A stretch of 61,827 nucleotides of DNA, filler included, from Asterionella formosa (GCA_002256025.1; 27 parts of 27 records of this genome joined end to end with filler, not necessarily neighbours in it), one strand, 5' to 3'. Shown: positions 27,500-61,827, counted from the whole stretch's first letter. Program-made: numbers and translations. The notes: generated by a model not told the origin, from the letters alone.

Positions 27500-27600
27500 N
27501 NNNNNNNNNNNNNNNNNNNNNNNNNNNNNNNNNNNNNNNNNNNTTAATTAATTAANNNNNNNNNNNNNNNNNNNNNNNNNNNNNNNNNNNNNNNNNNNNT

Positions 27601-29085
27601 CTCCGTACTGCTGACAATCATCTCGTCCACACCGTTTTCAAACACATCAGTCTCGACTTGCGCCCTGATTCCCATGTTCCTCTGCTTGTTCCGTGCCCTC
27701 CCCCCTTTGACTCCTTCTCTGGTTTTTCTCCTGGCACAAAAGAGGTCCTTCTGTCTGTTGACCGCTTGTCACTTCGGGACCGTCACACCCTCACGGCCGC
27801 CCCCATTGTTACCTCATCCCTTTTCGATGGCACTTCTGCTTCCATGTCGGATTTTCAATGCCAATTCGGCGAGTTCATGACCATTGAACATTTTCATCAC
27901 ACTGGTTTGCTTTCTATCCTGGATGCCCGTGGTGTGCCTCGCGATATCTTCCGTGATTCCAACTCCCTTGTGCTAAGTGATTTTGAGCGTGCCGACGCCC
28001 GGCTCCTCTCTGACTCTTCCCCGTCTGGCCTTGCTCTCGCTAAACTCTCTACTTTGCTTTTTCTTAAGCTCCAAAATTTGTGTACTCCTGCTTTCCAGGC
28101 CACTCTTCGTGGCTCCTACAAGCCTTTCTATGGAACTTCCTTTCTTCTGTATTATGCCTACATGTTGGAGTACTGTCATATGTCCGGCGTTGGTACAGTT
28201 ATCGATATCGAGCTCGCTCGTGAACAGTTGAGCCAATCCAAGCTTGTTCTTGCTTTCCGCACCCACCTCTATGATGTCGTTAAATTCTTTGCTGACATTG
28301 TCCGCCTTGTTGATCAACTCTCTCGTCTTGGCAGTTCCAAAGAAGATTTATGCGGTGCTATTCTATTTGCATTATCTACCTGTCCCGATGCTGATTTTGT
28401 TCGTTTCATCAATGCCCTTCGCCGTGATTTTATTCTCAAACAGGGTTCATTTTTCCATACATTTACGGATACCGCCCAGTTCGACTACCTTCGCAAAACT
28501 ACTGTTGCTGAATTTTCTCTTCTTTCCAAGGACAACCGCTACAATGTTGGCTCTTCTGCCGATGGTTTTGTTCTTGTTGCTGGTAAACATCAGCCTCCTC
28601 CCATCCCTGGACTTCCGGTTCCTCCTGCTGGCGGTCCTACCTTTGCCAATAAAGCCGACTGGGAATATCAACCCCCCCTTCCCGGCAAATCCAACAAACG
28701 CGAGGTGGAGGGGCGTTCCCTTTACTGGTGTGTTCATCATGCGCACAGCCCCCGCTGCCTTCATTTCATCAATACCGGTCAGTGGGTTGTTCACCATCCA
28801 ACCCAGTGTCGTCTCAAGAAGACCAAATCTCGTCCTCCGTCTGTTCCTCCTCCGGTTCCTGCCACTGCTCTTGTTGCTGCTACCCCTGCTGTCCCCACTG
28901 TTCTCCCTTCTCCCGCCACCGGTGCTCTTAGCTACTCTACTGTTGCTTCTGGTGAACCCCTCCTTATGCGCACAAAGCTCAAACAAGTGCTTGATGGCGG
29001 TGATCCCACTCAGGTGGCTGGTTTATTTGCTGCCTACCACGCCTCCTGTCTCCTTGATGATGTGCCCCTTGGTGATGCTCTCTGA
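27601..29085 (+). CDS. Gag of a CoDi-like Ty1/copia element (5'-truncated)
   Basis: Open from the contig start; Zn-knuckle variant LYWCVHH..C..GQWVVHHPTQC; Pro/Ala-rich tail; ends TGA. Confidence 0.75.
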   Translation, partial: LRTADNHLVHTVFKHISLDLRPDSHVPLLVPCPPPFDSFSGFSPGTKEVLLSVDRLSLRDRHTLTAAPIVTSSLFDGTSASMSDFQCQFGEFMTIEHFHHTGLLSILDARGVPRDIFRDSNSLVLSDFERADARLLSDSSPSGLALAKLSTLLFLKLQNLCTPAFQATLRGSYKPFYGTSFLLYYAYMLEYCHMSGVGTVIDIELAREQLSQSKLVLAFRTHLYDVVKFFADIVRLVDQLSRLGSSKEDLCGAILFALSTCPDADFVRFINALRRDFILKQGSFFHTFTDTAQFDYLRKTTVAEFSLLSKDNRYNVGSSADGFVLVAGKHQPPPIPGLPVPPAGGPTFANKADWEYQPPLPGKSNKREVEGRSLYWCVHHAHSPRCLHFINTGQWVVHHPTQCRLKKTKSRPPSVPPPVPATALVAATPAVPTVLPSPATGALSYSTVASGEPLLMRTKLKQVLDGGDPTQVAGLFAAYHASCLLDDVPLGDAL

Positions 29086-29793
29086 TTCTGGGGTCCGGCT
29101 GGACATGTTTACATTTCAATTTTTATGATGTGTTGTTACATGCATATTGCTCCTTATTTTGGATACCTCTCCATTCTTTGCAATATTCCAAATTTTGCCT
29201 GCAGACCTCTCTATCTTCTCTTGTCCTCTCTGAAACTTTTGTCTGGTTTCCTTCCTTCTCCACATCTCTTTGCTGCTGGTGTCCTTTTCTACATCCTTAC
29301 TCGTCACCTCTGCGCTATTATTTTCTACACGTCTACTTTGCTTGATTCCTTCTGTGGTCCTTCCCGCATTGTTCCCGCCTACTTTGCCTACCCCTCTACA
29401 CTCCTTATTTTCTCCCACGTTATGCTCTCTATGCACTTCATGTTCTTTTTACGTGGTCACTCTCCTTTGCGCTCTTTGTTCCTTTTGGACATTCTTTTTA
29501 GTTCCAATTTTCCGTCTCCCCATGGCCTCCTACTCCCTCTCTTTTCCTATATCTACCCTGGTCTATATGCTACTTATATTTTCGCTTCCCGTGGTTCCCG
29601 TACACTCCTCTATTTGATTCTTGCTTCGCTCCCGCGTCTTTTTCCTCTTGGCTACCTCAAATGCGCTTTCTCTCAACGTTTATCTTTCTCTACTGCCGCC
29701 CTCACTCAATTTGGTGTCATGACTCTTTCCGCGGCTACTTTGGATATCCTTCCCTCTACCTTCATTAACTTTGATGTTGACACGTATGATGTT
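29086..29793 (+). CDS. In-frame continuation after the gag TGA: hydrophobic multi-TM segment leading to the probable pre-protease motif
   Basis: Same frame as gag, no stop for 236 codons, Leu/Phe/Ile/Tyr-rich; ends INFDVDTYDV, like the FD.DS motif that precedes the protease in CoDi elements. Confidence 0.6.
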
Positions 29794-30379
29794 NNNNNNN
29801 NNNNNNNNNNNNNNNNNNNNNNNNNNNNNNNNNNNNNTTAATTAATTAANNNNNNNNNNNNNNNNNNNNNNNNNNNNNNNNNNNNNNNNNNNNAAACTTT
29901 TCAATTTTCCTGAAATAAACATGATCTGGAAGTCTGGTCAAACAGAGTGTGATGTTCAGGTGTGTTCCTATATCAAAATAACACAATTTGTTGGAAAAAT
30001 TTACACAAGTGTGTGACAAGCTAGATTAGACTCTCCAGGAGTACACATTTATTGCAATGATTATCATAGTAGTCTACAGATCAAAATATGGTAATAATCA
30101 TATTTAGCTATATATGTCATTTGCTATAATTCATACTATGTTATGGTTGCTCATTGTCATAGCAGCTGGGAGGGGACTAAATAACAATATGGTACTAATA
30201 ATACCAGGTAGATTGGAGAGAGTTATTTCCAGACAAGGAGCCCAAGATGCAACTTACAAAATTCGTTGGTCTGGTTTCTACTCCATTGAATTTTCGGTGA
30301 ACAAGGTCCTTATTGTTGGGAGGTGCCGTCGCTTCTCCTATGTTGGTCTTTTGATGGAAACCTGAGAAGATGATAAGGT

Positions 30380-30717
30380 CCACAATAATCTCGCCTTGAC
30401 ATCAGCCATCATGTATACTGAGGGTCGATGAGTGATTATTCAAGTGCGCAAATTTGCTCTGTATCATCGGTTACAGAGCTGTCAAATGACTGTACAGGGC
30501 CGTCTCCAGTCCCTCCTCTGTATTGTCCACTCAATAGGCTCCAACAGCTTTGGTTGAGGCCATCAGAGTCAATTCGAACACAATGATGTGCATGCGTATG
30601 TGGTGTAGCAGCCATCACAGTAGTGTCATGAAGCCAACTGAGTTTTGTGTGGCAAACAAAATAATGGTGGTTTATATGAAGGCTATGTAGTAGGCTAGGG
30701 TCAAAAAATGGGGACGT
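30380..30717 (+). repeat. Subterminal region of a DNA-transposon-like repeat shared with 46992-47330
   Basis: CCACAAT.ATCTCGCCTTGACATCA, TTGAGGCCATCAGAGTCAATT, GGTGGTTTATATGAAGGCTATGTAG in both. Confidence 0.88.
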
Positions 30718-30722
30718 GCCGA

Positions 30723-32087
30723 CATAAGAAAGAAGAAGCATCCTAAGATTAGGAAGCAAATTCTCAAGTATGGCGTTGAGGTCCCACAAAATGTCACCCA
30801 TGCAATGGAATTGGACAAGCAAAGTGGAAACACATTCTGGCAAGAGGCAATCAAACGTGAAATCTCCTCACTTGTCGAAATGGAATGTTTTGAATTTAAG
30901 AAGCCAGATTTTAACCCTGGAGTCGGATATCAATGGACAACACTGACAGTGATCTTTGACGTCAAACAAGATCTACGGCGCAAGGCAAGACTTGTGGCTG
31001 GCGGACATCTAGTTGACGCACTTGACAACAATATTTACTCTTCAACTGTGAAAGGCATAAGTGTTAGAATGCTACATGTGATTGCACACAAGCAGAACTT
31101 GAAGCTGCTTTGTGGCGATGTTGGAAATGCTTACGTCAATGCATACACTAATGAGCTAGTATACTCCCGTGCTGGACCAGAATTTGGAGAGGAGTTGAGG
31201 GGATCAATCATTCTCATCCGAAAAGCACTATATGGTTTGAGATCAAGCTCTGAGCGTTGGTGGACGCATTTTGCGGACACGATCCGGGGAATGGGGTTCC
31301 AGCCAACTAGGTACAACAAAGATGTGTGGTACAAGATGAGCAATGATACTTCACACTATGAATATGTCTGCACCCACTCAGATGACTTCATGATAGTGTC
31401 AAAAACTCCTGAAGTAATTATGGAAGGACTCAAGCAGGTCTATACAATCAAGTCTGAAGGTCCTCCAGAATATTATCTTGGGAACGACTTCAAGAAGGAC
31501 AAGAAGGGCAGGTGGTGTTTTGGATGCAAGAAATACATACAAGAGTCGATTGCAAGAATTGAGGTGATGTTTGGTGTGCAACCCAAAAGTACAATTCCAA
31601 TGAGTGCAAATGATCATCCAGAATTCGATGACACCACACTACTTAGTGATGACGAACATCGAAAGTTTCAGATGTTAATTGGCATGTTGAATTGGGTAGT
31701 AACAATTGGGAGATTTGATGTTGCACACGCCACAATGTCATTGTCAAGATTCTCTGCATGTCCAAGAAAAGGACACCTTGAGCGGGTATTGAAAGTGTTT
31801 GGCTACCTCAAGAGGAGGCCAAATAGGCGAATTGTTGTGGATTCTAGGTCGCCTGACTTCTCTTGACTCAGATCATGCCCATGACAAGATCACACGCAGG
31901 TCAGTGACCGGTTTGATTATATTCGTTGGAAGAACACCAGTATTCTTTATGAGTAGGCGGCAAGGAGCAGTGGAGACATCAACATACGGCGCTGAGTTTT
32001 GTGCTATGCGCATTGCAGTTGAAGAAACCATAGCTATTCGTTATATGCTACGCTCAATGGGAGTGCGGGTGGCTCATGCCTCATACC
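30723..32087 (+). mobile_element. CoDi-type Ty1/copia reverse transcriptase and RNase H (deletion/frameshift at ~31863)
   Basis: KYGVEVP..ELDK.SGNTFW, FDVKQDLRRKARLVAGGH, GDVGNAY, KALYGLRSS, THSDDF, PRKGHLER; then DSDHAHDKITRRSVTG, VETSTYGAEF. Confidence 0.95.
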
Positions 32088-34479: not shown

Positions 34480-36670
34480 TCTCCGTACTGCTGACAATCA
34501 TCTCGTCCACACCGTTTTCAAACACATCAGTCTCGACTTGCGCCCTGATTCCCATGTTCCTCTGCTTGTTCCGTGCCCTCCCCCCTTTGACTCCTTCTCT
34601 GGTTTTTCCCCTGGCACAAAATAGGTCCTTCTGTCTGTTGACCGCTTGTCACTTCGGGACCGCCACACCCTCACGGCCGCCCCCATTGTTACCTCATCCC
34701 TTTTCGATGGCACTTCTGCTTCCATGCAGGATTTTCAATGCCAATTCGGCGAGTTCATGACAATTGAACATTTTCATCACACTGGTTTGCTTTCTATCCT
34801 GGATGCCCGTGGTGTGCCTCGTGATATCTTCCGTGATTCCAACTCCCTTGTGCTAAGTGATTTTGAGCGTGCCGACGCCCGGCTCCTCTCTGACTCTTCC
34901 CCGTCTGGCCTTGCTCTCGTTAAACTCTCTACTTTGCTTTTTCTTAAGCTCCAAAATCTGTGTACTCCTGCTTTCCAGGCCACTCTTCGTGGCTCCTACA
35001 AGCCTTTCTATGGAACTTCCTTTCTTCTGTATTATGCCTACATGTTGGAGTACTGTCATATGTCTGGTGTTGGTACAGTTATCGATATCGAGCTCGCTCG
35101 TGAACAGTTGAGCCAATCCAAGCTTGTTCTTGCTTTCCGCACCCACCTCTATGATGTCGTTAAATTCTTTGCTGACATTGTCCGCCTTGTTGATCAACTC
35201 TCTCGTCTTGGCAGTTCCAAAGAAGATTTATGCGGTGCTATTCTATTTGCATTATCTACCTGTCCCGATGCTGATTTTGTTCGCTTCATCAATGCCCTTC
35301 GCCGTGATTTTATTCTCAAATAGGGTTCATTTTTCCATACATTTACGGATACCTCCCAGTTCGACTACCTTCGCAAAACTACTGTTGCTGAATTTTCTCT
35401 TCTTTCCAAGGACAACCGCTACAATGTTGGCTCTTCTGCAGATGGTTTTGTTTTTGTTGCTGGTAAACATCAGCCTCCTCCCATCCCTGGACTTCCGGTT
35501 CCTCCTGCTGGCAGTCCTACCTTTGCCAATAAAGCCGACTGGGAATATCAACCCCCCCTTCCCGGAAAATCCAACAAACGCGAGGTGGAGGGGCGTTCCC
35601 TTTACTGGTGTGTTCATCATGCGCACAGCCCCCGCTGCCTTCATTTCATCAATACCGGTCAGTGGGTTGTTCACCATCCAACCCAGTGTCGTCTCAAGAA
35701 GACCAAATCTCGTCCTCCATCTGTTCCTCCTCCGGTTCCTGCCACTGCTCTTGTTGCTGCTACCCCTGCTGTCCCCGCTGTTCTCCCTTCTCCCGCCACC
35801 GGTGCTCTTAGCTACTCTACTGTTGCTTCTGGTGAACCCCTCCTTATGCGCACAAAGCTCAAACAAGTGCTCGATAGCGGTGATCCCACTCATGTGGCTG
35901 GTTTATTTGCTGCCTACCACGCCTCCTGTCTCCTTGATGATGTGCCCCTTGGTGATGCTCTCTGATTCTGGGGTCCGGCTGGACATGTTTACATTTCAAT
36001 TTTTATGATGTGTTGTTACATGCATATTGCTCCTTATTTTGGATACCTCTCCATTCTTTGCAATATTCCAATTTCGCCTGCAGACCTCTCTATCTTCTCT
36101 TGTCCTCTCTGAAACTTTTGTCTGGTTTCCTTTCTTCTCCACATCTCTTTGCTGCTGGTGTTCTTTTCTACATCCTTACTCGTCACCTCTGCGCTATTAT
36201 TTTCTACACGTCTACTTTGCTTGATTCCTTCTGTGGTCCTTCCCATATTGTTCCCGCCTTCTTTGCCTACCCCTCTACACTCCTTATTTTCTCCCACGTT
36301 ATGCTCTCTATGCACTTCATGTTCTTTTTACGTGGTCACTCTCCTTTGCGCTCTTTGTTCCTTTTGACATTTTTTTAGTTCCAATTTTCCGTCTCTCCAT
36401 GGTCTCCTACTCCCTCTCTTTTTCTATATCTACCCTGGTCTATATGCTACCTATATTTTCGCTTCCCGTGGTTCCCATACACTCCTCTATTTGATTCTTA
36501 CTTCGCTCCAGCGTATTTTTCATCTTGGCTACCTCAAATGTGGTTTCTCTCAACGTTTATCTCTCTCTACTGCCGCCCTCACTCAATTTGGTGTCATGAC
36601 TCTTTCCGCGGCTACTTTGGATATCCTTCCCTCTACCTTCATTAACTTTGATGTTGACACGTATGATGTT
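34480..36670 (+). pseudogene. Second, defective copy of the 27600-29793 copia gag + hydrophobic region
   Basis: Nearly identical at an offset of 6880; premature TAG at 34622 and 35321; small deletions near 36070 and 36370; gag TGA retained at 35963-35965. Confidence 0.93.
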
Positions 36671-36770
36671 NNNNNNNNNNNNNNNNNNNNNNNNNNNNNN
36701 NNNNNNNNNNNNNNTTAATTAATTAANNNNNNNNNNNNNNNNNNNNNNNNNNNNNNNNNNNNNNNNNNNN

Positions 36771-37633
36771 AATGTACAGGTGTGAGGCATACTCTTCCTG
36801 ACATATGTTGCGTCACTTACAAGTGATTGCAGCACAGAACCGGGAATGACCATAGACAAAGTTTTCCAAAACATGTCGATATTGTTGGAAAGTAATGTAT
36901 TCGAGATCACCATCTTGTCAGTGAATGCTCCATAGGCAATCAATGACATTACCTTGCCTGTCATTTGCCTATAGCAATCACGACAGAGTATGGTTTTAGA
37001 ACCGAATGTGTTCTTGATGAGTGAATTGGTAGCCTCATCATTTCTGAGGTTCCCTAAAATTTGTTTAAAGCCCAGGTCAAGAAAAGGACAATCTTTTGTT
37101 CCGAAAAATTGGTCCGGGAGGAAAGACAAATTCAACAAAAATATCTTGGAAGATAGAGTCCCTTCAATCTGTAGCATGAAATCATCATCAATAATCAAAT
37201 GAACAGTTTTCATCGCGTCTGCAACTTTTTGTAAGAAAATGTTGAGATGTTTAATGCGGTCACATTGGTTCGAAGGCCAAACCTCATCAACAAAGCTTCT
37301 AGCAAACTTGACATTGCTATGATCAATAACAAGTGCATGCCATCCAATCTTCTTTCCGCCCTTCTTTTTAATGAAAGTTGACGAATTCACTGACTCCAGT
37401 CTCCTGAACATGACGTCCAATAAACTATCAAGGTCCGCATTCACGGTATCTTCGACATGACCTTGTAGGAAATGACGAATTAAAATACGGTGAGTGTGGT
37501 CACGATGCTGATCAAGCAGTACTCGAAGTCTCCATTTAACCACAACCCGATATGTGTTCTCAGGAAGTGGAACTGGAAGAATGGGGATAATTCTTCCAAG
37601 TCGGGATGCACGTAGGCTGTTCGAGATCACCAT
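36771..37633 (-). CDS. Unknown protein, probable second ORF of the Plavaka-like transposon (3'-truncated; may begin near 37866 via an intron or frameshift)
   Basis: About 290 open codons directly downstream of the transposase on the same strand; no motif recognised. Confidence 0.5.
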
Positions 37634-37943
37634 TGATTTTTTTAAACCGAGATAGGATACGGTACCAATTTTTCCAACGAAAGAACTTGGCTCTCTATTG
37701 ATGAGGATGACACGGACACCGACTTTTTATTTGCAGACGCAAGGAACGATTTTCTTGATTTCGGAAGGCTTCCGGGCATGGTCGAGAACTGATTTATTGG
37801 AGACCCTGTCGTACACATTGACCAGCGCTCGCTTTGGCCTTCGTGTAGCATACAACGTTCATACATATAGCTACCGGTAGCTAATATATATATTAATAGA
37901 AATAACTAGTACTGCTGTGTTGTGTGCATGCATATCTAGAATC

Positions 37944-59640: not shown

Positions 59641-61827
59641 ATACTGACCAACCATTGCGCCTAGATAGCGGCAAGGTGCGTTCCCTGGATCTTCAACAAC
59701 CTTAAGTGTAAAATAACAAGCTAATTCTTTGACTAACTCATCAGCTGCCGCTGAAATGAGCATAACATCATCGACGTAGACCAATGCATATTCATAGTAT
59801 GCTGAGCCATCCAGTTTTGTTGCTTTCCTCAACCACAGATCTGGATCAGCCTCACAAGCATAGAAATGCAAGTGATCACGTAACACAGAAGCCAGATGTG
59901 CCCGAAAGGCGGCACCAGCAGACTTCAGACCATAAAGAACACGAACGATCTTCAGCACACGACCTTTCAGCGGGCCAAATTCGTCCCCTGCCACAACATA
60001 ATAACGCTCTGTCACAGGCGCTGTCAAATAAGCATTCCCAATGTCTGTCAGCCGTAGATTTAATCCATTTAGACCGGCAACCAACAAGGCAATGCGAATT
60101 GTCTCCCTAGAAACGACACTTGAATATGTGATTGCCTTTGGGGGGTCAGTCCTATGACCTCCTGCCACATACCTAGCCTTGCGCGTGAAGTCCATCTTGA
60201 CATCCCAGACTATATGTCCCGGAATCTTCTTGTACCCAGGAACGTGGGTTGCCTTTTCTGGCTGAACTTCAAAAGCTATCATCACTGCAGACATCTCCTT
60301 GCGGAGAGCATCCATCCAAAATGTATTACCATTTTCATGGTCCAACCTTGCTGCGTCGGGAATGCTACTTGGCATTTGAACCCCAAATTTAAAACCAGCT
60401 CGGTGGTGTCTACTCTGTGTTGCCCTGATGATTCGTTTCTTGCGTCTTAAGACCATTGGAACCCACCAATCAAAAGCAGGCTCGGTTTCGATTTGGTTCG
60501 CTTTGGCATATTCAGCAACTTCAATTGGATTTGTTTGCTTCAAAGTCTTTAATGGGGGCCAGGATGTAGATCCGTCCCTCCATTCGACTTCTAGATCCCA
60601 ACCAGTTGTTGTTTTCTTCTTATAATGTTTCCCATTTCGCTGGAAGTATTGATCACTCTTCTCCACAGCCTTCCTTGAATCACGGCGATGGTCCACAATT
60701 TCTTTGAAGAGTTGGTACTGTCTACCCTCCTCGTCTACCTGACTGAGGAGATGCTCTGCCAATATATTGTATGCGATTTGCTGTCGCTCACCATCTAAGA
60801 ATTCGACCTCATAAACCCTGGAATCTAACCTTGTTGGAAACCTGTGCTTTCGCCCAACCAGGTTCCCGTTTGCATCCCGCTTTCGTTTAATGACCGCTGC
60901 AATCATATCGCCCTCCTGGTGTGGAAGTACGACCTGAGCCTTAATCAGTGGATCGAAACTGGGACCATTAGGATCTTCTTCCAGATCTTCATCTGTAGGG
61001 AGAATGCCATCAGGGGTAGCCTCGAAGATCTCTTCTTCAGGCTCATCTACCTCAGACTGGAGGATAGCATCATTATCATGGACCCCAACATGCTCCTTTA
61101 TCCTAGTCTCAAATTCTTTCATTTCATCTCTCAGCATTGGATACTTTAAATAATCATCATCGACAATCGGCCTCACAGTCGACCGAGCGATGTACCGCCC
61201 ATTCGCCTTAAGTACATAGTAACATAAAGCTTGCCCAACGCTCTTGGAGGGGCCAAGCCATCTCCCGAGTTTCCGTCGGGCCAGGCCACTCTCGTCCATA
61301 TCATTGGGATCATAGTAAATCACAAACTGATAGAAATCGAAATCTGTATACTCCGAAATATCAGGAGTATCACCTGTCATCACTTCATATGGAGATCGAC
61401 CCTCAAGTGCAGGTCTAGACATGAGCTCACGGATGTTGGAGGTATATTCCGCTGCAAAACACCATAGCATGTCTGGACATCTGTACCTATTCATGATACA
61501 ACGCCAATGCGTCTTGAATTGTCCAATCTCGCTCTCAGCTCTGTTCATCCAGGGGCTGTGAGGCTCTGTTGTTGTGCGAGGAACTAAGTGGATCTTCCGG
61601 ACTCTCTCGAACTCTGTGAAGTCCCCTGTTTCCGCAGCTGCATTGTCTGAGTGGATACCTAGTTCTGGAATTCCATATTGCCGGATGGCCGCATTGAATC
61701 TATCCCCACAATCTGCCTCAGAGCGCATTGGATACACCTTGGCCCAACACTGATCATTACAGAAAAGTTGTGCACATGTGTGTCCCCTCACCGACTTCAC
61801 CTTGTCCTTGGGAAACATGGTATCAGT
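59641..61827 (-). CDS. CoDi-type Ty1/copia Pol: integrase, linker and RT (open, truncated at both ends)
   Basis: DTMF..RGHTCAQLF, HSDNAAAE, PWMNRAESEIG, TPDISEYTDFDFY; RT DVKMDFTRKARYVAGGH, DIGNAYL, LYGLKSAG, YVDD; IN-before-RT order. Confidence 0.97.

Follow-up and report, generated by a model that had tools for sequence, protein, structure and literature searches.

How a Ty1/copia retrotransposon produces Pol when its gag ends at an in-frame TGA, and what the long hydrophobic stretch encoded between that stop and the protease might do, are the questions raised by a contig from the assembly of Asterionella formosa. Most Ty1/copia elements rely on one open reading frame for Gag and Pol, on frameshifting or on splicing. 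An in-frame UGA between gag and pol is, to our knowledge, found in very few of them; Tca2 is the studied case, and we know of no explanation of how its stop is bypassed. The original prediction for the present element was that Pol is made by programmed readthrough of the TGA, and that a multi-transmembrane (TM) insert between Gag and the protease serves as a membrane anchor or as an env-like protein in an unusual position.

The element and its copies

The window, meaning the whole stretch of DNA that was analysed (61,827 nucleotides, filler included), had been treated as one locus. It is in fact composed of 27 unrelated contigs of about 2.2 kb each, joined by N44-TTAATTAATTAA-N44 spacers. Contig A (Table 1) runs from the last three quarters of gag through the stop and a spacer into the first eight codons of the protease. 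Contigs A and B both derive from the interior of a Ty1/copia LTR retrotransposon; this assignment, made from the outset, is supported by the Copia-type reverse transcriptase (RVT_2) of the relative P0042 and by the match of gag to a copia capsid. The runs in which the element is found are freshwater, and its host is a freshwater alga, probably a diatom.

Copy B differs from copy A by 45 substitutions and three deleted bases. Its TGA lies at 35963-35965, and around it columns 1415-1590 of the alignment show no difference from copy A, in agreement with the claim that the stop and its context are the same in both. Copy B is a dead copy, with in-frame stops in gag at 34622-34624 and 35321-35323 (equivalent to 27742 G>T and 28441 C>T); in the spacer it has lost 1 nt near 36069/36070 and 2 nt near 36367/36368. 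A 2364-nt DNA contig of another assembly, X1, spans all of contig A and extends just 18 and 152 nt beyond it. The DNA of the element that was examined came from truncated or dead copies throughout, with no intact full-length element seen among it.

Since the window is made of separate contigs, the Copia reverse transcriptase encoded by the next one (29894-32087) lies outside this element. It was considered as the element's own and rejected, having 22-26% identity to the reverse transcriptase of the element's family. The presence of this neighbour may have coloured the first reading.

Neither tandem nor inverted repeats were found in contig A. Its direct repeats are limited to short, two-copy ones, so the spacer is not an expanded microsatellite. 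When DNA of relatives was sought, a metagenome scan yielded one 1099-bp locus, holding the 5' part of gag only, and genome contigs yielded no match; viral contigs searched with the gag alignment and with the pol alignment gave none. In run X16, 28649-29187 was without cover, which is no evidence of anything because the data are contigs.

Table 1. Positions of the features discussed, counted from the first letter of the window
Feature	Position	Strand	Remarks
Contig A	27600..29793	+	Internal fragment of a Ty1/copia LTR retrotransposon; assembly breaks at both ends
gag frame	27601..29082	+	494 codons, open from contig start, 5'-truncated; C-terminus GDAL
Capsid (CA)-like helical region	27796..28536	+	Gag fragment residues 66-312; AlphaFold pLDDT ~80-90
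Cys/His motif C377-x2-H380...W395...C403	28729..28809	+	At the place of the nucleocapsid zinc knuckle
TGA ending gag	29083..29085	+	In frame with pol; identical in copy B
Pyrimidine-rich hydrophobic spacer ('leader')	29086..29769	+	228 codons between gag stop and protease; open in frame 0 only
Hairpin GTCC-GGCT-GGAC	29093..29104	+	4-bp stem, starting 8 nt after the stop
ATG ATG, first in frame after the stop	29125..29130	+	Spacer codons 14-15, 39 nt past the stop; candidate pol start
Start of retropepsin-like protease (FDVDTYDV)	29770..29793	+	8 codons, placed by alignments to relatives; contig ends here
Copy B	34480..36670	+	Degraded copy; first and last bases as contig A

Gag

In relatives the start chosen by the gene caller corresponds to the ATG at 27844, and full-length gag has about 650-706 residues. 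Codon periodicity in the gag frame is strong (chi2 136; third positions A 0.085, T 0.46). The upstream protein is gag, with a predicted capsid fold of the Copia/Ty1 kind. The best VIA-align match of its model was the Drosophila copia capsid 8vvw_A (Z 9.5, 182/184 aligned, rmsd 6.7), and the first five ranks also held a Ty1 Gag CA-CTD derivative, 9rxy_A (Z 9.3, rmsd 2.6), PEG10 CA-CTD (Z 8.0), a second copia capsid (Z 6.9) and PNMA2 (Z 6.9), all of them values that helical models often attain. A Foldseek search of the PDB with the same model gave no match at E <= 0.001.

The capsid-like region is followed by a Cys/His motif (C-x2-H...W...H-x4-C) of which W395 is invariant among 14 aligned relatives, down to 18% identity; W354, P359, C377, H380 and C403 are nearly invariant in the same 14. 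Pfam zf-CCHC had no match in gag. Diatom Copia groups mostly lack CCHC according to the available text of their published description (PMC2806351), so it is not required for membership of Ty1/copia. Pfam searches found nothing above cut-off in gag or in the spacer and nothing in 11 gag relatives; a Suv3_C_1 row (E 0.016) from the gag/spacer search was below its own cut-off and was dismissed.

Protease and downstream pol

A protease had been expected to follow the insert, and it does: in P0040, P0041 and P0042 the frame continues into protease, integrase and RVT_2. The order protease, integrase, reverse transcriptase was read in P0042, the window itself ending at the first protease codons. In this relative, a protease-like region at the aligned FDVDTYD...DNC is accompanied by Pfam matches to gag_pre-integrs (344-392), SH3_retrovirus (600-672) and RVT_2 (927-1160), the last with E 2.8e-40 and 138.9 bits against a cut-off of 31.6.

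The invariant Asp residues of the protease region are D216 and D225 of P0040. A model of P0040 residues 217-345 matches the retroviral-protease-like domain of Ddi1 (Z 6.8) and the proteases of foamy virus (Z 5.2) and FIV (Z 5.1), and the pol models of relatives have fold matches to integrase cores too. Pfam also matches Pol_BBD at the corresponding alignment position of P0047 and P0048. The protease triad reads D-N-C in P0040-42, P0044 and P0045, D-T-G in P0047 and P0048, and D-S-Y in P0046.

The gag stop codon and the shared frame

As had been stated, gag ends in GDAL-TGA and the same frame then stays open to the end of the contig. It continues TTC TGG GGT CCG GCT GGA... for 236 codons with 0 stops to 29793, ending in INFDVDTYDV, while the other two plus-strand frames of 29086-29793 are interrupted by 4 and 6 stops. 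Stops are rare by composition, because the strand is poor in A and G (14% and 13% in the spacer); a fully open frame 0 was obtained in 36/5000 dinucleotide-preserving and 18/5000 mononucleotide shuffles.

The gag stop is real and conserved, since eight relatives share the C-terminus that it defines, their gene calls ending at the homologous position (P0002, P0005, P0006, P0007, P0009, P0015, P0032 and P0034). This coincidence of gag C-terminus and stop position holds in relatives down to 46% identity (46-51%). No variant falls on the TGA among those listed for four runs. The 494 + 236 codons contain no other in-frame TGA, and all four Trp codons are TGG. Two relatives, P0029 and P0033, have W at the stop position and the frame reads on; P0029 also preserves, in recognisable form, the 13 codons that lead from the stop to the first ATG. 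These observations support a single frame shared by gag and pol and divided by a single TGA.

Expression of pol

The stop lies in the context CUC UGA UUC UGG. Readthrough motifs recognised as leaky include UAG-CAR-YYA, UGA-CGG/CUA and UGA-CUAG, and none of these three matches it. The pseudoknot-free fold of 29083-29202 has a z of -0.26, with 69/200 shuffles folding at least as well. The small hairpin that had been pointed out 8 nt downstream of the stop is present, but its stem of four base pairs is absent from the MFE fold and it is treated as a chance occurrence. Programmed readthrough remains a candidate mechanism: no recognised leaky context and no structure signal were found, and the expression data consist of one colinear RNA-library contig.

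That contig, of 1200 nt, is colinear over 28747-29793, across the junction, without a splice, and no splice joint near the stop is among those listed in four runs. The check for splicing that had been called for therefore came out in favour of an unspliced junction. A splice noticed by eye, from GT 29072 to AG 29204, would skip 133 nt and leave the protease frame, and was rejected because 133 is not a multiple of 3. The only joint listed, a 114-nt skip (27657>27772) in one contig, has TT..CA ends and looks like a deletion variant; it was rejected as an intron.

Because ATGATG lies only 39 nt past the stop, Pol might also come from reinitiation, from internal ribosome entry or from a subgenomic RNA. 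The gene call of P0040 begins at the second of these ATGs, and P0029 keeps 'FMM' there. A precedent is provided by Tca2 (pCal) of Candida albicans, a Ty1/copia element with gag and pol in one frame and a single UGA between them; in the available text of its description, the junction alone gave no readthrough in yeast and a cryptic promoter is present, suggesting that the flanks alone may not suffice (PMC2194720). For this reason stop bypass cannot be assumed here.

Conservation and constraint of the spacer

Codon periodicity in the spacer is weak and of the same sign as in gag (chi2 24, p 5e-4; third positions A 0.068, T 0.50). The spacer is homologous and in frame in P0040 (94%), in P0041 (48% over 84% of its length) and, in part, in P0042 (56-60%). 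With P0041 the identity of 48%, with gaps, compares with ~85-90% in the protease-integrase region (by eye, from alignment blocks). Blocks kept in P0041 and P0042 are found around FSHVMLS.HFMFFLRG and in the last 60 or so residues. From these kept blocks and the significant codon periodicity, it follows that the spacer retains some constraint.

Variable sites were pooled from copy B and four runs, whose contigs are mixed copies. The counts are small and cover listed sites only (40 in gag, 30 in the spacer); they fall on the three codon positions as 14/3/23 in gag (p 5e-4 against uniform) and as 12/12/6 in the spacer (p 0.30), and the third-position share differs between the two (Fisher p 0.003). 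Per nt, the spacer has 0.042 such sites and gag 0.027 (p 0.07). Second codon positions are hit by 5/15 of the spacer variant sites from the four runs and by 9/22 of the differences between A and B. The spacer thus lacks the codon-position signature of purifying selection that gag displays in the same copies, and, judged by this variation, constraint on it is relaxed.

Free accumulation of stops and frameshifts in the insert had been named as grounds for abandoning the original prediction. Copy B does have two frameshifts in its spacer, and other copies in the four runs have a 1-nt deletion there; however, these copies also have three frameshifting indels in gag, and the gag of the same dead copies is as damaged as the insert. 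The spacer is most likely translated in frame 0 as part of Gag-Pol.

Hydrophobicity of the spacer

The insert had been described as very hydrophobic, with several candidate TM helices. Its hydrophobicity is confirmed by a GRAVY of 0.83, but the candidates fare less well: only two 19-residue Kyte-Doolittle windows reach 1.6 in copy A, with one in P0040, two overlapping ones in P0041 and none in P0042, and Arg, His, Ser and Pro occur within them. Leu, Ser, Phe and Pro, which have pure-pyrimidine codons, make up 111 of the 236 residues encoded by 29086-29793 (47%); the same four amount to 47-53% of the spacers of this family versus 0.34-0.36 of the remaining pol. Frame 1 of the same DNA is more hydrophobic still (GRAVY 1.35). 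The caution that strand bias could inflate hydrophobicity proved justified, the residue make-up following the pyrimidine bias.

The spacer's fold model has a pLDDT of 30-51 and seven predicted helices, and its recognition by a protein language model is low (733). A query of the Atlas with the spacer reached a best score of 0.87, to unnamed clusters, and gave no lead. VIA-align of the P0040 leader (residues 1-81) returned generic helical matches with Z ~5-6, one of them a designed TM protein, which are meaningless at pLDDT <50. Upstream of the protease, TM-like windows occur in four of six distant relatives, in which composition is unbiased: P0043 (1.75), P0044 (1.62, right after the first Met), P0046 (2.09 and 1.92) and P0047 (up to 2.11). 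Their presence in unbiased sequence favours a hydrophobic feature of the whole lineage. No description of a hydrophobic spacer before a Copia protease was found in a full-text literature search of limited scope.

Discussion

The explanation that we favour, with moderate confidence, is that gag and protease are separated by a translated, weakly constrained, pyrimidine-rich spacer, kept open because Gag-Pol is made by bypass of the stop. It builds on the established architecture of the element, its frame, the conservation of the stop, the identity of gag and pol and the relaxed constraint on the spacer. Gag, with its Copia-like capsid fold and C-x2-H...H-x4-C motif, ends at the conserved UGA, and pol in the same frame encodes a retropepsin-like protease that carries D-N-C where the active site is expected, an integrase and an RVT_2 reverse transcriptase. 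A minority of ribosomes would pass the UGA and make a Gag-Pol that includes the spacer, which would result in the usual excess of Gag over Pol. Selection would hold the spacer open and in frame, and its residues would drift towards the Phe, Leu, Ser and Pro encoded by the T/C bias; such drift would be sufficient to explain the hydrophobicity. We infer, then, that the UGA is bypassed by readthrough and that the spacer plays no specific role at membranes.

Several other explanations concern the frame and the stop. The open frame might simply reflect the scarcity of A in dead copies, the stretch being untranslated or decayed and nothing functional lying between gag and pol. Stops are indeed rare at 14% A and 13% G, copy B has its two spacer frameshifts and other copies their 1-nt deletion, and the variable sites are flat over codon positions. 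Nevertheless just 0.7% of shuffles are equally open, the periodicity of frame 0 is significant, and gag is equally disabled in the same dead copies (two stops in copy B, three frameshifting indels in the runs); entry of the same frame into the protease in three families (P0040-P0042) largely refutes this account, which is very improbable. Scarcely credible is the suggestion that the host reads UGA as a sense codon or as selenocysteine, making gag-pol an ordinary single Copia ORF. The W at the stop position of P0029 and P0033, with reading on beyond it, can be cited in its favour and fits a TGG variant or a gene call with TGA=Trp. Opposed to it are the eight gene calls that end exactly at the stop, the lack of a further TGA in the 494 + 236 codons with 4/4 Trp codons as TGG, and the agreement of the stop with the point where gag ends in relatives of 46-51% identity; nor are diatoms known to use a variant nuclear code. 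A more serious contender, although unlikely, is that the spacer forms the N-terminus of a Pol made apart from gag translation, by reinitiation or internal entry at ATGATG or from a subgenomic or internally promoted RNA, so that the shared frame is incidental. P0029 and P0040 both retain the ATGATG, the region downstream of the stop gave no readthrough signal, and pyrimidine-rich tracts like those of the spacer are typical of some internal entry sites. This has to be set against the 13 codons between stop and ATG, kept in the P0029 protein about as well as the gag tail, and against frame 0 being the sole open frame from the stop onwards. That the listed RNA contig ends and loose ends include none at the junction is a weaker point, since contigs cannot show RNA starts. 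Tca2 can be cited on both sides, for in the available text its junction holds a minor promoter and alone drives no readthrough, yet its Pol is concluded to come from gag-pol RNA, which requires stop bypass there (PMC2194720).

The spacer may alternatively be a real multi-pass membrane anchor or signal-anchor that holds Gag-Pol or Pol on the ER or another internal membrane while particles assemble, with selection acting on hydrophobic character and not on exact sequence. A GRAVY of 0.83 and seven predicted helices are consistent with this, as are the recurrence of TM-like windows in P0041 and in the pol of the distant, unbiased relatives P0043, P0044, P0046 and P0047, and a frame that is open across deep divergence; many substitutions are generally tolerated in TM segments. 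On the other hand, few windows reach 1.6 (two in copy A, one in P0040, none in P0042) and the candidates contain Arg, His, Ser and Pro; second-position changes are frequent (5/15 in the runs, 9/22 between A and B); T/C-rich DNA encodes a like make-up in any frame; and the leaders of distant relatives begin at gene-caller ATGs and may include untranslated or out-of-frame sequence. Taking composition bias, flat codon positions, fast divergence, a pLDDT of 30-51 and an Atlas recognition of 733 together, the anchor or env-like function originally predicted has become a weak proposition, and a membrane anchor of this kind is improbable. More doubtful again is its wider form, in which an algal Ty1/copia lineage would have placed a hydrophobic, membrane-inserting leader before the protease. 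Gag-Pol made by UGA bypass, or Pol with its own start, would then be anchored co-translationally in the ER, and assembly or protease activation would occur on membranes. The leader would be an old feature: P0044, P0046 and P0047, of unbiased composition, show TM-like segments before the protease too. It would be accompanied by the unusual D-N-C protease motif.

Among known systems, Tca2 is alike in being Copia-type with a single in-frame UGA between gag and pol. It differs in having a proposed pseudoknot 3' of the UGA, where no structure signal was found here, and in its host, a fungus as opposed to an alga; we know of no hydrophobic spacer of ~228 residues before its protease. The CoDi elements, Copia elements of Phaeodactylum and Thalassiosira, are brought to mind by the nearest Atlas cluster with recorded taxa, which is mostly Bacillariophyta. 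They are likened by description only; the available text of their descriptions makes no mention of a hydrophobic spacer or a D-N-C protease motif, and the runs with the present element are freshwater. In Drosophila copia and plant Ty1/copia elements the gag-pol ORF is uninterrupted and an excess of Gag is obtained via spliced or shortened RNA. The present element resembles them in capsid fold (8vvw_A, 8s41_A), pol order and RVT_2, whereas a stop divides its genes and no splice was seen. Sireviruses, of the Copia lineage, carry an extra env-like ORF with predicted TM segments as a separate gene 3' of pol; in the present element the hydrophobic stretch forms part of the pol frame and precedes the protease on the 5' side.

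Gammaretroviruses of the MuLV type also have an in-frame stop between gag and pol, and make Gag-Pol by occasional suppression of it. In MuLV the stop is UAG, a defined pseudoknot begins 8 nt after it and the protease starts at the stop, in contrast to the UGA, the 4-bp hairpin and the 228 extra codons before the protease found here. Another likeness to the spacer is offered by HIV-1 p6*, which links Gag to the protease, is poorly conserved and unstructured, and in which length and cleavage matter and fold does not. It is ~56-68 residues long, hydrophilic and reached by a -1 frameshift. The likeness lies in a poorly conserved linker before the protease, with no homology between the two.

The element represents a second lineage, unrelated to Tca2, with the same layout. 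It abounds in freshwater algae, is represented in RNA libraries and offers an independent system in which to ask how Copia elements pass the gag stop. Its spacer illustrates how a strong compositional bias yields a long, open and greasy mimic of a membrane domain, a trap for annotators. If the spacer were nevertheless inserted into membranes, it would localise retrotransposon assembly in a way that is new.

Genomic context and the gag–TGA–pol junction

The window (61,827 bases) is made up of 27 unrelated contigs of 2184–2202 bases each, ordered by length and separated by N44-TTAATTAATTAA-N44. It represents more than one locus, and features on either side of such filler are unlinked. Two contigs, A and B, carry copies of one element (see table). 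Contig B begins and ends with the same bases as contig A; 45 substitutions and two small deletions separate the two. Copy B is dead: its gag contains two in-frame stops, and the stretch downstream has lost 1 nt at one site and 2 nt at another.

Coordinates of features in the window
Feature	Position	Strand	Remark
Contig A	27600–29793		gag, TGA, spacer, protease start
gag frame	27601–29082	+	open from contig start
Skipped segment	27657–27772		114 nt, ends TT..CA; skipped in one RNA-library contig
Cys/His motif	28729–28809		C-x2-H ... W ... H-x4-C
RNA-library contig (1200 nt, one library)	28747–29793		colinear; extends 153 nt beyond
Variant-free segment	29053–29195		143 nt round gag stop
gag stop	29083–29085	+	GDAL–TGA
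Stretch after stop	29086–29793	+	236 codons, ends INFDVDTYDV
Hairpin	29093–29104		4-bp stem
Contig after A	29894–32087		Copia RT of another family
Copia-type RT fragment	30937–31839	+
Copia-type RT fragment	48227–48523	+
Copia-type RT fragment	59641–60180	-
Contig B	34480–36670		second copy
Open frame	36719–37726	-	335 aa
Open frame	37944–39005	-	353 aa

The gag–TGA–pol arrangement of the original prediction is confirmed: gag ends in TGA and the same frame continues without a stop to the contig end, with the TGA and its context identical in copy B. Within the stretch, frame 1 contains four stops and frame 2 six; of 5000 dinucleotide shuffles, only 36 leave frame 0 fully open. The plus strand contains very little A and G (in contig A, A is 0.16, C 0.31, G 0.17 and T 0.36; in the stretch, A is 0.137, G 0.134 and T 0.425), so stops are rare in every plus frame. 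The gag stop is homologously placed in eight gene calls, including P0007, P0009, P0015, P0032 and P0034. In two related proteins, P0029 and P0033, the frame reads on with W at this position, which may mean that the codon there is TGG or that the gene was called with TGA read as Trp.

The sense strand of both copies is extremely pyrimidine-rich, with T or C at 80–83% of third codon positions, a richness absent from all other 25 contigs. Retroelements are usually A-rich. Possible causes of the bias are codon preference, mutation bias or editing.

The Copia reverse transcriptase (RT) on the contig after A is that of another family, being only 22–26% identical to the RT of the contig A family. Counting this contig, three contigs besides A and B carry Copia-type RT fragments, which are only 22–38% identical to relatives of the element; several Copia lineages are present in the genome. 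The two contigs after copy B carry long minus-strand open frames.

Pol follows the stop

The 236-residue translation, used as a query against longer proteins, gave three matches: P0040 (623 aa; 94% identity), P0041 (624 aa; 48% identity, 84% of the query covered) and P0042 (1174 aa; 56% identity over the query's last third, 29% of the query). In all three the hydrophobic stretch leads in the same frame into FDVDTYDVAFDNCTSYCVTNDKRDF and beyond. P0042 contains the Pfam domains gag_pre-integrs, SH3_retrovirus and RVT_2 (RVT_2 E 2.8e-40). The P0040 model resembles retroviral-protease-like domains at residues 217–345 (Ddi1 Z 6.8, 99 aligned; foamy virus PR Z 5.2; FIV PR Z 5.1) and integrase cores at residues 508–603 (MMTV Z 7.9; ASV Z 7.3), and Pfam Pol_BBD lies at the aligned place in the more distant pol relatives P0047 and P0048. 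From these Pfam, model and alignment matches, the element is therefore a Ty1/copia element with a protease downstream. Contig A stops within the first eight protease codons, and the relatives continue through the domain. The proposed insert of ~230 residues corresponds to ~228 codons between stop and protease.

The predicted protease triad (P0040 residues 225–227, beyond window position 29793) reads D-N-C, not D-T/S-G, in P0040–P0042, P0044 and P0045; its Asp is invariant in nine aligned sequences. Related families have D-T-G (P0047, P0048) or D-S-Y (P0046).

The Gag protein

The gag frame has no match in Pfam. Its relatives are P0002 (99% identity), P0003 and P0004 (74–80%), P0005 (51%) and P0006 (46%), to all of which the C-terminus is common. 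The frame aligns into the long N-terminal extensions of P0005 (683 aa) and P0006 (706 aa), and the window's gag is therefore 5'-truncated. In the only metagenome locus retrieved, L001, gag starts ~159 codons upstream of the start of contig A. The extension of full-length relatives (L001 215–690; P0005, P0006) spans 160–290 residues and, by eye, contains two similar short, putatively beta-rich modules (...V.Y....G..P..V.V..VD...P...Y.....DG...).

An AlphaFold model built from 14 aligned relatives has a mean pLDDT of 69 (about 80–90 at residues 40–310). Foldseek found no match to it in the PDB. A Foldseek-independent structure search ranks retroelement capsids on top. The first, the copia capsid of Drosophila (8vvw_A), has Z 9.5 and rmsd 6.7 with 182 of 184 residues aligned; a derivative of Ty1 Gag CA-CTD (9rxy_A) follows at Z 9.3 and rmsd 2.6, and PEG10 CA-CTD at Z 8.0. 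Below them are PNMA2, another entry for a copia capsid, and Arc. Helical models commonly score this high, and the weight lies in the run of capsid entries.

The Cys/His motif residues C377, H380, W395 and C403 are nearly invariant down to 18% identity, at the expected place of the nucleocapsid knuckle, where the conserved motif stands in place of a CCHC knuckle. It is also found in ~400-aa proteins with acidic C-terminal tails at 18–22% identity (P0025, P0027, P0030, P0035–P0037, P0039). The segment skipped in one RNA-library contig is probably not an intron but a deletion that some copies carry; in P0015, too, much of the interior of gag is deleted.

The spacer: translation, constraint and a possible membrane anchor

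Evidence that the spacer is a translated frame comes from frame 0 being the sole open frame and from preservation of the homologous frame in a family with no more than 48% identity. The base composition of third positions has one signature in the spacer (A 0.068, T 0.50, C 0.33) and in gag (A 0.085, T 0.46, C 0.33); in a codon phase test, chi2 is 24 (p 5e-4) in the spacer, compared with 136 in gag. The 13 codons from the stop to the first ATG are recognisably retained in P0029.

The spacer is weakly constrained. Between copies A and B, 23 of 1485 gag sites differ (9/2/12 by codon position) and 22 of 708 in the stretch (7/9/6); variants listed in contigs from four public runs (two RNA, two DNA) add at least 7/2/16 and at least 7/5/3, respectively. 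Pooled, the listed variable sites fall 14/3/23 in gag (p 5e-4 vs uniform) and 12/12/6 in the stretch (p 0.30), and their third-position share differs between the two (Fisher p 0.003); their density per nt is 0.027 in gag and 0.042 in the stretch (p 0.07). Frameshifting indels do occur in the insert (one listed in the public runs and two in copy B, besides one in-frame 3-nt insertion) and in gag too (three among those listed). In comparison with P0041, identity is 48%, with gaps, in the stretch and about 85–90% in protease–integrase (blocks read by eye). Conserved blocks in the stretch include the region round FSHVMLS.HFMFFLRG and the last ~60 residues.

The insert had been proposed to be a multi-transmembrane (TM) anchor. 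It is indeed hydrophobic (GRAVY 0.83, against -0.01 for gag), but only two 19-residue windows reach a Kyte–Doolittle value of 1.6 or more, both with Arg, His or Ser, and AlphaFold gives seven helices at pLDDT 30–51. Frame 1 of the same DNA scores above frame 0, at GRAVY 1.35. The residues with pure-pyrimidine codons (Leu, Ser, Phe and Pro) account for 111 of the 236; Glu is absent and Lys occurs only twice. In the contig A family their fraction is 0.49–0.53 in the spacer and 0.34–0.36 in the remaining pol, compared with 0.22–0.28 in the pol of distant families, a pattern expected if compositional pressure is strongest where constraint is weakest. The Atlas recognition value is 733 for the spacer and 2551 for gag. 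TM-grade windows are nevertheless found upstream of the protease in four of six distant pol relatives of unbiased composition (peaks: P0043 1.75, P0044 1.62, P0046 up to 2.09, P0047 up to 2.11; none in P0045 and P0048), in protein-level leaders that begin at gene-caller ATGs. These windows keep the anchor reading alive, albeit as a weak and rather unlikely one.

Expression of Pol and relation to known elements

The layout would require the stop to be bypassed, and readthrough, as originally proposed, is a plausible and the simplest kind of bypass. The UGA context, CUC UGA UUC UGG, however, matches none of the leaky motifs with which it was compared, and the 120 nt beginning at the stop show no more stable a fold than shuffled sequence (z -0.26). 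The predicted hairpin is present but short, and is absent from the minimum-energy fold. An ATGATG 39 nt downstream of the gag stop could allow ribosomes to reinitiate or to enter internally. The segment round the stop contains no variable site among the variants listed in copy B and the four public runs, where about 4–5 would be expected at average density, a possible sign of a conserved RNA element.

All or part of the stretch occurs in at least 20 runs, among them six RNA libraries; the runs belong to 16 studies, and most carry the label freshwater metagenome. The colinear RNA-library contig indicates that an unspliced form is present, and other forms are possible; no splice joint near the stop is listed in the two RNA and two DNA runs, whose sequences are contigs and may include DNA.

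Tca2 is the one studied Copia element that likewise has an in-frame UGA. According to the Tca2 study, its gag–pol junction alone drove no readthrough in yeast and contained a minor promoter; Pol was nevertheless derived from the gag-pol RNA (PMC2194720). An in-frame stop is not without precedent in the Copia group compared. A full-text literature search found no paper that describes a long hydrophobic spacer ahead of the protease in a Copia element. The element represents a Ty1/copia family which combines an in-frame UGA with a 228-codon, pyrimidine-rich and weakly constrained spacer.
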